Virus record (IMG/VR): IMGVR_UViG_2529292913_000008
Length of the DNA: 64,000 bases
DNA from: a virus
Lineage: Duplodnaviria; Heunggongvirae; Uroviricota; Caudoviricetes
Direction: 5' to 3' (one strand)
Shown here: in pieces, positions 4,502 through 58,903 of the stretch
Position numbering within the stretch: position 1 is the first letter of the stretch
Layout of the letters: each line of letters starts with the position of its first letter
Notes under the pieces: generated by a model
What the model was told of the DNA's origin: nothing
The model's database searches: none
The model's input: the letters and a program-made list of their open reading frames with translations, nothing else
Position numbers and translations under genes: made by a program

Positions 4502-5545
4502 TTATCTAACGCTCGACGAGTGACTTGTGATAGCGCCGACTCCAAGCGCGTAATCAAAGAACAATCGTTGATGCATCGCCAGCCTACCGTGTGTTTTCTC
4601 CCAATTATCGCGGTCACGCTCAATATCACGCTGGCATGACTGGCACAGAGGAATAGCATAAATGTCATGCGCGCATAATCGACTATGACGAACGATATAA
4701 GGCGTAATGTGAGCGCCAGCTCCCGCAGCTCCACAGCCACAGCATGGACGGGAAGCAACAAAGTCCATGTACTCAGGTAATTTTAGCGATTGAAGTTTTG
4801 GTATTTTGAAATGCGCCATACCTGGGTCGGAGTCAACATCCACAGGACATACTTTTGCACGCATCGGCGCGGCGCGTTCTTCCATCATCTGAACATATGC
4901 TATAGCGCGATCGTCATACGGGCGAATATCCGCCTCTTTCAGAGGTCCGCTATCCTGCGGAGTAGCCTTCATCTTATTTATTGATATGCGGCAGACTTCT
5001 TCCGGCATCAGGTGCATCATGTTGCGCATGAAAGCCCACCAGCACAGTTCCTGAATACTTAAATCATGGCCATCTGAAAGCCCCATTTCCTGACGGGCGA
5101 CATCCAGTATCCAGTTAACGCGATTATTATGCAGCGTTTCTTTCAGCTCATTAAAACCACGCATCCGGTAATGGTTATCGTGATGCCAGCACAACAACAC
5201 CGCGCTATTGTCTCGTTCAGCGTGGACAATATGGTTGTCACACCAACTACGATCTGCGGCCTGGCATTGCCCCTCTTTCCTGCGCAACCACGCCACCAGC
5301 GAGTCAATTCCACCAATACGGCGAAACAGTTCATCGCTGTTAAAAAACGGCTGCAACGCCTCATTTGTTGCCATAGTTTGCTCGGAAACAACGAGGCCGT
5401 CGTCCATGTGCTCGATTAACTCACGCGGCACCGGCTCCATAATAAATTTACGGCCAGCCTCCACCAGCTTTCTGACCTCCTGGTCCACTTTGAACGTGGC
5501 GAGGCCAAGCTCTTTCTGTACAAATGGAGTAATTACGGCTTTCAC
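4502..5545 (-). CDS. Hypothetical protein with Cys-rich C-terminal motifs (pdcB-position)
   Basis: 347-aa ORF downstream of doc; contains CCGCG and CxxC-type cysteine clusters; function unknown. Confidence 0.5.
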
Positions 5546-43670: not shown

Positions 43671-43804
43671 GGATTTTACCTTCCTCCCCTACTCCCGAAA
43701 AAATAAAAAAATTGCTTGTCACGAGAAAGTCAACAAGTGACTTTCAATAAAATCTCTTCCGAAAAGGGATTCACACAAGTGCCTTGTGTTTAAGGAAGAG
43801 TAAA

Positions 43805-49228: not shown

Positions 49229-50567
49229 CATAAGCGCTAACTTAAGGGTTGAACCATCTGAAGAATGCGACGCCTCGGTGCCTCGTTAAGACGATGCCTC
49301 GCGTTCTTCAATTGCGTTTTGTAGGCTGTCAGGGATACTGTCCCACGAATGGCCACCTGTAAGCTCCAGATGACCATTTTTGTTATTCTCCACAACGAGT
49401 TAGTTCTTCTTTTCGGATCCGGCACTTCTGGGGGGGAAATCCAGCGATGGCTGGATTATGTCGTCAATTAAAAATGCGGCGAGTAGATTAGCAAATATCC
49501 ACGCTTTCGCGAGTTCAGGTTCCTTTGCACGCAAAGCATCCAGGTGCAGCAAACTTTTGAGCCGCTTAAAAGCCAGTTCAATTTGCCATCGCAGACGGTA
49601 ACAATCAGCCACTTGCTCTGCTGAATATTCATCTTCCGGTAATGATGTTAGCAATAGCACATGGCCCGCTGCTTCCAGCGTTTCCGCCTGAACTACTCGT
49701 CCTTTTCGACGATTCTCGCTGAGCAGTCGGGTTTTACTGATTAATGCTTTTTCGGGAGGAAGTGATACGGCAATGAGACGTGCCGGAAAGGGAGCTCCGG
49801 CTTTTTTATTACCTGAATTGCCTATCATTACAGTGGTTTCACCGTTCTTACCGCAATCCAGCCCGCGCAGAAAACCCATCATGTCAAAGCGCATTCCTTC
49901 TGCAGTTAACCAGCGCAATCCTCGCCAGTGAACCCGGACGATATAATCAGCTTCTCCAAAAGCAAGTGAGCGGATACATTCGGGACGCGAACCGAATCCC
50001 CGGTCAGCAATGCGTATCTCGTCTGCCGTTTGCGCAAATCGGTCCAGCCGTTCAGCGTCTCTGCTGTCGGTTAGCTCAAAATCAGTGAACTGACAGGTAT
50101 GAGGATCATATCCCATATGTAGTCGCCATTCAGCGCTGCCGCCCCCGGGCGCACTGATTGCTGTTCCATCGACAAGACGCAATCTCTTTCCGCTTGTACA
50201 ACCCGTAACTGCGGCGCGTACAGCAAGTGTTTGTGCGGCAAGTATGCCAAACCAGTCGGCGGCATTCCGCAGCCGCTTCAGGAGAGCCACGTCAGATAAT
50301 GTTGCAACGTCATGGAGCTGAGCCCATGCAGTGACTTCACGTAATGACATCCCCCCGGGGCCGTAAGCCAGCCCCAGACGTAGCAGAGTTGCAGCATCAC
50401 GAATTTCGCGGCGGCGGGTTAGAGCCCCGGCATTACGTGCCGAAGTATCCAGTTCTTCGGGCTTACCAATATGGGCCAGAATTGCTGACCAGTTATCGTG
50501 AGAGTAATTCATCGGCACGTTAAATCATATCAGGCGTAATACCACAACCCTTAAGTTAGCGCTTATG
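49229..50567 (-). mobile_element. IS186 (IS4 family), 1339 bp, with 10-bp target-site duplication GGATCTCTCC
   Basis: Terminal inverted repeats CATAAGCGCTAACTTAAGGGTTG at 49229 and its reverse complement ending at 50567; identical flanks at 49219-49228 and 50568-50577. Confidence 0.85.
49400..50518 (-). CDS. IS186 transposase
   Basis: 372 aa, recognised as the IS186 transposase (MPMNYSHDNWSAILAH...). Confidence 0.9.
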   Translation of the reverse strand: MPMNYSHDNWSAILAHIGKPEELDTSARNAGALTRRREIRDAATLLRLGLAYGPGGMSLREVTAWAQLHDVATLSDVALLKRLRNAADWFGILAAQTLAVRAAVTGCTSGKRLRLVDGTAISAPGGGSAEWRLHMGYDPHTCQFTDFELTDSRDAERLDRFAQTADEIRIADRGFGSRPECIRSLAFGEADYIVRVHWRGLRWLTAEGMRFDMMGFLRGLDCGKNGETTVMIGNSGNKKAGAPFPARLIAVSLPPEKALISKTRLLSENRRKGRVVQAETLEAAGHVLLLTSLPEDEYSAEQVADCYRLRWQIELAFKRLKSLLHLDALRAKEPELAKAWIFANLLAAFLIDDIIQPSLDFPPRSAGSEKKN

Positions 50568-50589
50568 GGATCTCTCCCCGCCAGGTCTC

Positions 50590-51222: not shown

Positions 51223-52067
51223 TCACCCTCTGAATCCTGCCGGTATACCCCATTGTTCGTTATCTTTATTTTTGGCTAAAACCGCATTAAGAGCTTCGTT
51301 TACCGTCATGCAATGCGGCAGATTATCGAAGTTTGATATCCCGCCAATATCAGGAGAACGCTTGTCCTTCAGGTAAGCATATTTCCGCGCTGCCGCCTCT
51401 ACTTTCTGCTTGAACTCATGTTTTTGAGCGCGTTTTTTGGATAACCGCAGATTGTCAGCCTTTGCTTTTGCCTCAGCGATCCATGAAGTCAATTTTTTGA
51501 GTCTGGTCGTTCCGGCACCGCCGGAAACTGATCTTTTTGTTTTTTAACTTGTGACTTCTTATTCTTTATTGCCACGTCATCCTGACAGGGGGAGGGGGTA
51601 TCATTTTGACATGGGGGTGTGGATAAAAAATTAAATAAAGCCAATGTCTTAGCGAGAACAGCTTTAACCTTGGTTGCCGCTGAAGAGATCTTTAATTTGC
51701 TTTCAATCAGCGCATTTTTGGCTTGTTGTGCGAAGGCCAAAAAGGATGGTGTAAACCGGTACAGGTTAGCGCGACGTTCACGGTGATCGCCGATAACAAT
51801 CTCTACAGACAGGATTCCTTTGTTTACAGCTTCACGGAATGCACGAACGACGGTTGATTGGCTATAACCAGTTTCTGCCGCGATCAGGCGGTGAGGCTTG
51901 TGAATGAAGTATTCACTGGTTGTTGCCGCGAGATTTGCACATTGCGACAAGATATGCCCGGCGCTACGGGATAGACCGGAGTGTGTTACAAAGCAGGCCA
52001 ATTCATAGCCAGAAAAAGTAAAATCGCTCATCGTTATACAGCTCAGGAAAGTGACTTTAGCCAGCAT
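51223..52067 (-). pseudogene. repL: Lytic replication protein RepL gene split by a -1 frameshift at a T6/A6 run (51493-51498)
   Basis: The 192-aa and 89-aa ORFs abut; adding one A to the run fuses them into 281 codons, the length I recall for P1 RepL; kilA lies immediately upstream. Confidence 0.55.
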
Positions 52068-52096: not shown

Positions 52097-52897
52097 TTAG
52101 CGCGTCGCCGCGACAGGCACCAGCACACCAGCATCAAGCAATCGCTTCATAAGCCACTGCTGACCTTTGCCGGTTATACGAGTCGTGAAAGAAATCCTGC
52201 TTCCATTGCTTGTATCGATCACGGTTTCTTTAAGGGTGAAATACCCACGGGATATGTATTCTTGTTTGGGGACGTTCCTGCGTTCACCGGTTGCGATCAG
52301 AATTCCGTTATCACGCAACCAGGTGAAGAGATAGTTTTGGCCCAGGCCGAGCACTTTGGCATAGTTGCCGATTAGAACCCCGCTGGCGGTAGCAACGCGT
52401 TCGGCGAATTCGACTTTAGGTGCATCCATAAGCATTTTTTGCTCCAGCCGTTGCTTTTGCTCTGCCAGGTCGGCAGCCAAACGGAGAGCTTCAGGGAGAC
52501 TCTGCGGAATAGCAGGTTGTAATCTTCCAGCTCGATAGTCGATAAATGTCTGGTTTACCTTCAGCCGAAACGCGGGAGAAATCCAGCCTGCGTACTCCAC
52601 AGCGAGCAATTCATGGGCAAAAGTGCCGCCGCCACGGCCTTCGAACGAAACTATGCAATTCTGCATAGTTTCTTTTTCAAGCTCTTCGATGAGCTGTTTA
52701 GCTGACAGCGTTCTTAGCCATTGAGCTGGCGCTTTATGGGCACCGAGTCCGCTCGCTCTGTGTAGAGCATTAAGGTTGTAACGGCCAGCGCGGTCGGTCG
52801 TAATTTCAACACCACAAATAACGGGCAGAGTGGTTGAAGGATCGACATTTTGATGAAGGTTTGATATATTCATATCCGCATTGAATGTTTGTTGCAT
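52097..52897 (-). CDS. kilA: KilA (KilA-N domain plus Ant-like C-terminal domain)
   Basis: 266 aa; its C-terminal ~130 aa are paralogous to the C-terminus of the ant gene upstream. Confidence 0.7.
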   Translation of the reverse strand: MQQTFNADMNISNLHQNVDPSTTLPVICGVEITTDRAGRYNLNALHRASGLGAHKAPAQWLRTLSAKQLIEELEKETMQNCIVSFEGRGGGTFAHELLAVEYAGWISPAFRLKVNQTFIDYRAGRLQPAIPQSLPEALRLAADLAEQKQRLEQKMLMDAPKVEFAERVATASGVLIGNYAKVLGLGQNYLFTWLRDNGILIATGERRNVPKQEYISRGYFTLKETVIDTSNGSRISFTTRITGKGQQWLMKRLLDAGVLVPVAATR

Positions 52898-53060: not shown

Positions 53061-54104
53061 TTAACCTATTGCTACTGGTTTTAACAAACCAGCATCAAGT
53101 AGCTTGCGAGTTAACCACTGCTGGCCTTTACCCGTTAATTGGGGCGTCAGCCGTATCTGGTAGCCATTTTCATCATCCAGCACCACTTCTTTCACCGTGA
53201 AATACCCGGCGTTGATGTACTGTTGGCGCGGTACGTTTTTGCGCGCACCAAAAGCCATGAGAATGCCGTTCTGGCGCAACCATGAGAAAAGGGCGTTTTG
53301 CTTAAGTCCAACGACCTTTGCAAAGTTCCCGATCAGGATTCCATTAGCCGCTGATACCCGGTCGGCAAAATCGACTTTAGGGGCTGCGGCCACCAGCTGT
53401 TGTTCCAACTGCATTTTCTGTTCTGCCAACTCGGCAGCCAGGCGTAGAGCGTCTGGTAATGTTTGGGGGATCGATGGGGCAGGGGAGTTTGCCTGCTGCA
53501 ATTCTTCCAGTTTGTCGATCAGCGAACGGCGGACTGCTTTTGACTCGCGCGCGGCGACTCGCAGGGCTTGTTTGTAGGTCATGGTTATGACAACCATAGG
53601 CGTACCGCCACCTGGCGGCACGGTTGCACTTTTTGTGTAACCGTCCTCACCTTCTAATTCGTCGAGTATTTTTTTGATGAATTTGTTGTTCCGAACCTCT
53701 GGTTCCCCACATAACTTACGCGCTTCATTGACCATCTTTAACAGCGTCTGGCTGTCGATTGTGTCTCCAGTGTTGGAGATAACATTCACAGCTGGTGATG
53801 GCGTAGCTGAAGCAACAGATGCTGGTTTTTTAACATTCAAATTATTACTGGTCATTCTATGTGCCTCCTTTCTCATTTCTGCTGCCACCGTTGCGTAACG
53901 TAGACGTCCTTGTTCAATCAAATAATCCCTGATCTCGGCTATCAGTAGCCTGTTGATCACAGCCTTATCTGTTCGGGTATAAAAACGTCTGGTTATCATG
54001 AAATAGTTGGCAATTGCGCCGGGGATCTCCCGTGTCGGCATACAGGCAGTATGCAGGGCGATCGCTTCGGCTATGTCATTACGGGTGACGAGAGGTTTTT
54101 TCAT
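53061..54104 (-). CDS. ant: Antirepressor (Ant-like)
   Basis: 347 aa with a KilAC/Ant C-terminal domain; the icd ORF overlaps its start. Confidence 0.7.
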   Translation of the reverse strand: MKKPLVTRNDIAEAIALHTACMPTREIPGAIANYFMITRRFYTRTDKAVINRLLIAEIRDYLIEQGRLRYATVAAEMRKEAHRMTSNNLNVKKPASVASATPSPAVNVISNTGDTIDSQTLLKMVNEARKLCGEPEVRNNKFIKKILDELEGEDGYTKSATVPPGGGTPMVVITMTYKQALRVAARESKAVRRSLIDKLEELQQANSPAPSIPQTLPDALRLAAELAEQKMQLEQQLVAAAPKVDFADRVSAANGILIGNFAKVVGLKQNALFSWLRQNGILMAFGARKNVPRQQYINAGYFTVKEVVLDDENGYQIRLTPQLTGKGQQWLTRKLLDAGLLKPVAIG

Positions 54105-56654: not shown

Positions 56655-57266
56655 ATGGGGTTTAATGTTGCTTCAGTAAAGTCTTATGTATCTTCGGCAT
56701 TAACGACGACATTATTTGGCTCCGGCGTTGGTGAACGGGAAGTTGGTAAGCTGACGTCAATCATCATGAACAAAATGCTGTTCGCGCAAGGATGGCAGTT
56801 CTCTGTCGAAGTTGATGGACTGGAGGGGGCAGACTTCTTTGCCAAAGATATTACCTACCACGATTACAGCATCGAATATGAAACGATTAAAATCGGCGGA
56901 GGGAATATCCTTCAACCAACGGAGCGTTCGCCTGGGCAGATAACAATGATGGTCAGGGATACCGTTGATGGCCTCGTTTTGGACTGGTTTAAGACGGCAA
57001 AAAGTCGGGTGATCAATCCGGACGGTACCGGGAATATACCGTCTAAATATTTGCTCAATGTGCGTATTTATCGGTTGCTGTCTTCCGGCTTAACCAAACT
57101 GGAAAATGAGATGACGGTATTCCCGGTCACTACCGGCGATGTCACCTATGCGCGAGATCAGGTTACTGAATTTAAGTCATTCCCAATGACCTTCGCATTG
57201 CACAGCACGTTTAACCAATCCTCAAGTTCTTTGGCTTCCCTTCTGGGCTTTAGCTTTTCTCTTTGA
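56655..57266 (+). CDS. Hypothetical late protein
   Basis: 203-aa ORF. Confidence 0.5.
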   Translation: MGFNVASVKSYVSSALTTTLFGSGVGEREVGKLTSIIMNKMLFAQGWQFSVEVDGLEGADFFAKDITYHDYSIEYETIKIGGGNILQPTERSPGQITMMVRDTVDGLVLDWFKTAKSRVINPDGTGNIPSKYLLNVRIYRLLSSGLTKLENEMTVFPVTTGDVTYARDQVTEFKSFPMTFALHSTFNQSSSSLASLLGFSFSL

Positions 57267-58243: not shown

Positions 58244-58903
58244 ATGGAAAGAAAAAACGCCAATATTGACGATGTTATAAGGACAGTTGAAACCGCCAGC
58301 GCGAAAGAGCTGGAAGAGCTTGCAGGTATTCGGGAAGCTGTTGAAGATTTGAAAGGGGAACGAGTTGCAACTGTTGATCCTGTCTCTCGCAGTGTGTCGG
58401 CATTAAATCGCACAATCGAAAATTCACGTCCTGACTTTGTGACCAATGCGCCATCAGTGGACCCTATTGTTGACGCAATAAAACGGCTTAATTTAGGGGA
58501 CGTTTCTCGTATACGGGAGGACAAAGTCACTAACCGTGCACAGCAGGCTGCACCAACAGCGCACAATCCCCCAAATAGACGAAGAGAGGCAATAACAGAG
58601 GATGTTAAAGCACAGCGGTTAGAAACGGTCAAACTCGCTCGTGATTTGAAAGGGGAACGCGTTGCAACGGTTGACCCAGTATCTCGCAGTGTGTCGGCAT
58701 TAAATCGAACAATCGAAAATTCCCGGCCAGACTTTGTGGCCAATGCGCCATCAGTAGACCCTATTGTTGACGCAATGAAACGGCTTAATTTAGGGGACGT
58801 TTCTCGTGTAGTTCAGGAGGGCATTGCTCAACAGGAACAGCAGGCCAAATCAACTACACCAAAGGGTAAAAACGACGCAGGAAGGCTATACCAGAGGATA
58901 TAA
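58244..58903 (+). CDS. Hypothetical protein with an internal ~54-aa tandem duplication
   Basis: 219 aa; GERVATVDPVSRSVSALNRTIENSRPDFV.NAPSVDPIVDA.KRLNLGDVSR occurs twice. Confidence 0.55.
   Translation: MERKNANIDDVIRTVETASAKELEELAGIREAVEDLKGERVATVDPVSRSVSALNRTIENSRPDFVTNAPSVDPIVDAIKRLNLGDVSRIREDKVTNRAQQAAPTAHNPPNRRREAITEDVKAQRLETVKLARDLKGERVATVDPVSRSVSALNRTIENSRPDFVANAPSVDPIVDAMKRLNLGDVSRVVQEGIAQQEQQAKSTTPKGKNDAGRLYQRI

Follow-up and report, generated by a model that had tools for sequence, protein, structure and literature searches.

One-base shortening of a homopolymer run in repL of a P1/P7-type plasmid prophage contig, probably a length miscall

The lytic replication gene repL is interrupted in a 64,000-nucleotide contig of a P1/P7-type plasmid prophage (the window, meaning the whole stretch of DNA that was analysed) by the absence of one A from a run of seven, and we infer that this base was most likely lost in the assembly and is present in the DNA itself. 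The lesion lies in a single run (Table 1), and one A restored there yields a protein of 281 amino acids that is 100% identical to RepL of P7 and to WP_001379176.1 of plasmid NZ_CP122822.1. The contig carries several private or rare ±1 changes in its longest homopolymer runs, out of proportion to the six SNPs that separate it from its nearest complete relative, and the shortened repL allele is associated with one sequencing batch. A homopolymer-length miscall, in an assembly from reads prone to homopolymer errors, is therefore the probable origin of the A6 allele. Most probably the split of repL does not exist in the DNA itself; were it real, repL would be a routine pseudogene. It concerns a known gene in a known element, and a one-base frameshift that is an assembly error or a routine pseudogene has little biological weight.

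Sequence comparison identified the window as a plasmid prophage of the P1/P7 type. A 1-kb query around repL matched P7 with 99.8% and P1 with 98.1% nucleotide identity. The annotation of both phages gives repL 846 nt and 281 amino acids, places oriL within the gene and states that the product 'initiates lytic replication at oriL'; repL/oriL of P1 is the textbook lytic replicon. The synteny in the window is that expected of a P1-type RepL, with repL as second gene of a kilA-repL operon downstream of icd/ant. Precomputed matches to PF26868 (Phage_P1_RepL) are present on both repL fragments. A Pfam scan of the 192-aa and 89-aa ORFs gave a sub-threshold match to MarR_2 as the sole match and did not return the RepL family. 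Judged by its sequence and gene order, this kilA-repL lytic replicon is an ordinary one for a plasmid prophage of the P1/P7 type.

A single uninterrupted ORF of 281 codons is not found in the window. Two ORFs of 192 and 89 codons are present, as the preliminary description had reported; they overlap by 4 nt and together span the P1/P7 repL. That description had also attributed the split to the loss of a single base in a homopolymer, and alignment with P7, P1, Ro157c2 and 673R5 bears this out, as the only indel of the window repL is a change of GTT-A7-CAAAAAG to A6; the gene shows no other indel in comparison with NZ_CP122822.1 either. The loss had been placed in another run, however, and this site is off by 47 nt: the run named there is A6 in all five aligned genomes, has normal length and merely precedes the TGA reached by the shifted frame. 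The proposed repair by one added A stood with regard to the codon count, since 281 codons result at either run, but an A placed at 51493-51498 gives 13 wrong residues at positions 177-190. The sum of 192 and 89 equals 281 because the stop of the shifted frame overlaps a TTG at codon 193, although the 192-aa ORF ends in 16 out-of-frame residues. Users of the contig should repair repL at 51540-51545 and not at 51493-51498.

The A7 run is the longest homopolymer in repL. In the middle of the gene (51490-51650) homopolymers are clustered, and about 150 nt hold T6, three C5, A7, A5 and A6. Public records also contain repL genes broken at other runs, namely at C5 in 673R5 and at a second locus (L061), at A5 in L016 and at T6 in L319. 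The gene is also broken in CP042617.1, which lacks the C that separates A7 from A5, and in JAPWWC01, at five runs.

Table 1. Features of the window that bear on the interruption of repL and on the other homopolymer changes
Feature	Position	Strand	Description
c1 repressor gene	321-1173	plus	219-aa C-terminal ORF remains at 514-1173
c1 repressor run	386-393	plus	A8, relatives A7; frameshift after codon 24, stop after about 32 codons
pmgS	17579-18841	minus	two frameshifts
pmgS, second frameshift	18209-18213	minus	plus strand T5, coding strand A5, relatives 6; private to the window contig
pmgS, first frameshift	18700-18707	minus	plus strand A8, coding strand T8, intact pmgS 7; same in NZ_CP122822.1, 'frameshifted' in RefSeq
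Intergenic run	43698-43703		A6; A7 in NZ_CP122822.1 and 8 other loci
IS transposase ORF	49400-50518	minus	G7 in the window
repL	51223-52067	minus	lytic replication initiator with oriL inside the gene, interrupted; assigned by P1/P7 identity and annotation
repL C-terminal ORF	51223-51492	minus	89 aa, TTG start; equals codons 193-281
ORF overlap ATTGA	51489-51492	minus	4 nt; TGA (51489-51491) of the shifted 192-aa ORF over TTG, RepL codon 193
repL N-terminal ORF	51489-52067	minus	192 aa; codons 1-176 native, then 16 out-of-frame codons and TGA
Run first named as the lesion	51493-51498	minus	coding A6, same in all five aligned genomes; normal length, not the lesion
Frameshift run of repL	51540-51545	minus	coding A6 (plus T6), relatives A7; context GTT-A(n)-C-A5-G
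kilA	52097-52897	minus	intact, 266 aa; upstream gene of the C1-controlled kilA-repL operon by P1/P7 synteny
ant	53061-54104	minus (repL strand)	intact, 347 aa
Intergenic run	58868-58872		A5; A6 in NZ_CP122822.1 and AIGA01000018.1

Over 6.5 kb, including an IS junction, the window is 100% identical to AIGC01000010.1 (GCA_000249735.2, 91,644 bp). This contig was reached by exact-protein look-ups; PLSDB and the complete E. coli sequences of RefSeq contained no 100% match to the window. The accessions AIEV-AIHS are drafts of the E. coli DECA collection from 2012 (PMC3558956). The nearest complete relative is NZ_CP122822.1 (plasmid unnamed6 of E. coli ETEC1731), with 99.95-99.99% identity over almost all of the 64 kb, and the two differ by the six SNPs, seven one-base homopolymer indels, one copy of a 12-bp repeat and the orientation of the IS. 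Five of the seven indels are private to the window or rare (c1 +1, pmgS -1, repL -1 and two intergenic -1). They include both signs, three of them are genic and two intergenic, and all affect runs with a true length of 6-7. Sorted by true length, about 3 of 20 seven-base runs and about 2 of 85 six-base runs are off in the window, and none of length 5 or less. The private homopolymer indel rate of the window is about 7.8 per 100 kb. A further indel, G7 to G6 in the IS transposase, is confined to NZ_CP122822.1. The sister draft AIGA01000018.1 (L069) shows 0 SNPs and two homopolymer differences to the window in 14 kb; it has its own private change of A5 to A4 at window position 57003.

The gene c1 and the gene at 17579-18841, which is pmgS, had been listed in the preliminary description as likewise broken at homopolymers. 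Both are, which makes three conserved genes in total, but pmgS has two frameshifts. The A8 allele of c1 was found in 0 of 702 plasmid records and in 1 of 122 IMG/VR contigs, and other public assemblies, in which nearby genes are broken too, miscall the essential c1 A7 run as A6 or A8. By established P1 biology, a c1-null prophage should not be maintainable while its kilA, ant, lpa and pac genes are functional. All four genes are intact in the window, and the c1 frameshift is therefore almost certainly an error in the contig. Public records contain the exact 219-aa c1 fragment on 55 contigs; in these the run is A6 or A8, and other broken genes mostly lie nearby.

The A5 allele of pmgS is absent from 613 plasmid records and 116 IMG/VR contigs. 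The change from T7 to T8 is visible only against intact pmgS, as NZ_CP122822.1, which was sequenced independently, has the same allele; this shared change may be a real inherited pseudogene. A compensating double frameshift in pmgS was considered and ruled out, because the approximately 494 nt between the +1 and the -1 change are full of stops.

At the repL run A7 is the prevailing allele, with 508 of 511 plasmids, 63 of 68 IMG/VR contigs and all 38 metagenome contigs. The A6 allele occurs in three plasmids, all of them in noisy assemblies, in five IMG/VR contigs and in 2 of 514 RefSeq complete E. coli records; it was not found among the metagenome contigs (0/38). All five IMG/VR carriers stem from IMG genome ids 2529-2534xxxxxx, and four of them were matched to the DECA contigs AIFB, AIFV, AIGA and AIGF. 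Of the 6 contigs in the DECA batch, 5 carry A6, versus 0 of 62 other IMG/VR contigs (Fisher p = 5.8e-7) and versus 0 of 38 metagenome contigs (Fisher p = 5.9e-8), so that all 100 IMG/VR and metagenome contigs outside the batch have A7. By their SNPs, the A6 carriers fall into at least three backgrounds, and for two of these a zero-SNP A7 twin from another project exists. The recurrence of A6 therefore tracks the sequencing project and not phylogeny or descent. An old inherited A6 allele of single origin was ruled out by the same backgrounds and twins. Near-identical replicons are mixed at the run, with A7 in NZ_CP122822.1 and A6, at 0 SNPs, in AIGA01000018.1 and AKNH01000050.1.

To judge from the error pattern, the reads of the DECA project were presumably of the 454 type. 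The run-level Logan assembly SRR490662 shows 0 SNPs and two extra indels compared to the deposited DECA contig AIFB, and the reads of this project are thus noisy at homopolymers. Generic assembly noise was rejected as the full cause of A6 in the DECA batch: other long runs are normal in these genomes (the c1 A7 run is correct in 8 contigs, the pmgS T6 run in 7), and private homopolymer indels excluding repL amount to about 3.5 per 100 kb versus 2-3 in other assemblies, which is near background. Since generic noise is insufficient for five of six at one site, either a site-specific systematic undercall or a real mutation is needed. The miscall reading must assume a context-specific undercall, perhaps linked to the A7-C-A5 context.

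According to the miscall reading, one A of the repL A7 run would have been lost as a length miscall and carried into the consensus. The deposited outcome would then be a 192-aa product of 176 native and 16 out-of-frame residues together with an orphan 89-aa C-terminal ORF, and the real plasmid would have A7 and an intact RepL of 281 amino acids identical to that of P7. This intact RepL would start lytic replication at oriL once C1 repression of the kilA-repL operon is lifted. Platform error had been the preferred reading in the preliminary description, and it is the one best supported by the excess of private indels, their two signs, the c1 change and the batch-tied repL allele.

It is possible, although we regard it as rather unlikely, that the A7 run lost one A by genuine slippage in the plasmid lineage and that repL is a pseudogene, the other homopolymer changes still being errors. 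Indeed, A6 is shared without SNPs by AIGC, AIGA and AKNH01000050.1, and the Logan contig SRR490739 has A6 with 0 SNPs to NZ_CP122822.1 in the repL region; the clearly random errors, by comparison, are not common to AIGC and AIGA, and the genomes of the DECA batch call other runs correctly. The same allele was also found in clean independent assemblies on at least two to three other backgrounds. No differences separate DADGTQ01, JAJANK01 and SRR10310403, which have no other indel, and the clean assembly JAEEGD01 is close to CDDILZ01. NZ_CP090325.1 looks clean as well, with repL annotated by RefSeq as the sole frameshifted gene in 8 kb. Because A6 is present in clean independent assemblies on other backgrounds, the deletion of one A from A7 does occur for real, with a frequency well under 1%. 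The genes broken at other runs (673R5, L016, L061, L319) would fit as well, if loss of RepL is tolerated, as it seems to be, or would reflect a run-rich gene. A search of the literature for repL frameshifts already described in P1-like plasmids found nothing relevant.

Nevertheless, genuine slippage would require at least four independent identical mutations concentrated in one sequencing project of 2012, and it has to be reconciled with the 0 of 100 A6 contigs outside this batch. The three A6 matches among the 511 plasmids are all in noisy assemblies. Noisy carriers of A6 include NZ_CP016549.1, which is riddled with homopolymer errors and in which nearly every gene beside repL is 'frameshifted', CP042641.1 (49 features on 95 kb), and CP121349.1 together with several Logan contigs, which show multiple homopolymer deletions. 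Furthermore, A7 is present in the closest complete relative, which shows no SNP in the repL region and six over the 64 kb, and the window contig demonstrably holds other homopolymer errors, one of them in c1. If slippage were true, the plasmid would be kept by RepA/oriR and ParAB, which are encoded elsewhere in the window, but replication would not start at oriL after induction, and the element would be a lytic-defective ('domesticated') P1-like plasmid.

An extension of this view appears improbable to us, namely that the repL A7 run is a recurrent slippage hotspot at which P1-like phage-plasmids repeatedly lose lytic replication, the A6 of the DECA batch being one real event. Such a hotspot would offer a simple one-base route to phage-plasmid 'domestication' with plasmid maintenance kept. 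If A6 were real in several lineages, it would be a small, clean example of phage-plasmids losing lytic competence.

Very improbable is a switch or a mutator, i.e. a phase-variable A-run, programmed frameshifting or transcriptional slippage, or a mismatch-repair mutator host in which all five changes are real. In its favour, all six SNPs are transitions and the indels are confined to A/T runs of 6-7, a spectrum that a host deficient in mismatch repair would be expected to produce; A6 also recurs on several backgrounds, and public assemblies differ in the c1 run as well (A6/A8). Against it, six of six transitions are not significant alone given the usual transition bias, the sister draft AIGA01000018.1 differs from the window only at homopolymers, a genuine frameshift in c1 should kill its carrier as long as the lytic genes are intact, and recoding is unnecessary as the relatives encode one continuous ORF. 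Phase-variable contingency tracts typically comprise 8-9 or more bases for A/T runs. The wild-type tract of repL, with 7 bases, is short by this measure, and its length is near-uniform among the plasmids. The phase-variable alternative raised in the preliminary description was not sustained, since the metagenome contigs and the 62 IMG/VR contigs outside the batch reveal no population polymorphism. The six substitutions are located at 4600, 6858, 18487, 23757, 54649 and 54898.

For users of the contig, the homopolymer miscall as preferred reading means that c1, pmgS and repL are to be treated as intact genes with homopolymer miscalls. Fragments of split repL spread in databases as named proteins. 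The orphan 89-aa fragment is listed in GenBank as 'replication protein RepL'; its exact sequence is present on 75 contigs and a close variant on 210.

Two further features distinguish the window from its nearest complete relative. In hsdS, encoding the specificity subunit of a type I restriction-modification system, the 12-bp unit CTTACCGCTGAG (TAEL) is present three times at 12787-12822, while NZ_CP122822.1 has it twice. This resembles the difference of two versus three TAEL repeats between EcoR124I and EcoR124II, which changes the target spacer. The repeat difference could confer different restriction specificities on two almost identical plasmids. An element of the IS421/IS186 family (IS4 family) is located at about 49230-50568 between bplB and hok, with a target duplication of about 10 bp. 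This site is also occupied by IS421 in NZ_CP122822.1, but there the element points the other way and its transposase is frameshifted (G6 versus G7 in the window); CP099239.1 and NZ_CP196313.1 are among the plasmids with the orientation of the window. The difference in orientation could be due to independent insertion at a hotspot, to inversion, or to a mis-oriented repeat in one assembly.

Exactly the change of A7 to A6 seen in the window is present in the DECA drafts AIFB, AIFV, AIGA and AIGF, in NZ_CP090325.1 and in CP121349.1. In phage vB_EcoM-673R5 (ON470615.2), by contrast, the break in repL is at another run (C5 to C4), and this genome has other singleton indels in addition. The annotation of all these records shows repL as two pieces or as 'frameshifted'. 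Relatives with the same split as two real genes had been named as the observation that would speak against a lost base; the same split was indeed found, but as a pseudogene or in error-ridden assemblies. NZ_CP122822.1, with 0 SNPs to the window in the repL region, has A7 and an intact product of 281 amino acids, which is annotated as 'MarR family transcriptional regulator'. Its c1 is intact, whereas that of the window is frameshifted, and the T8 frameshift of pmgS is common to both.

The lytic replicon of P1 and P7 corresponds to that of the window in the order icd/ant, kilA, repL as well as in position, and a C1-operator-like motif, ATTGCTCTAAT, follows the repL stop in all of them. What lies downstream of repL differs: a hok-type toxin gene and the IS421/IS186-family element in the window, rlfA/rlfB in P1 and rapA/rapB in P7. 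The RepL ORF is continuous in P1 and P7 and split in the window as deposited, which is one A short in the A7 run. After repair, RepL of the window is 100% identical to the P7 protein (AF503408.1, repL AAQ07519.1) and differs from that of P1 (NC_005856.1, P1_gp050) at 4 residues.
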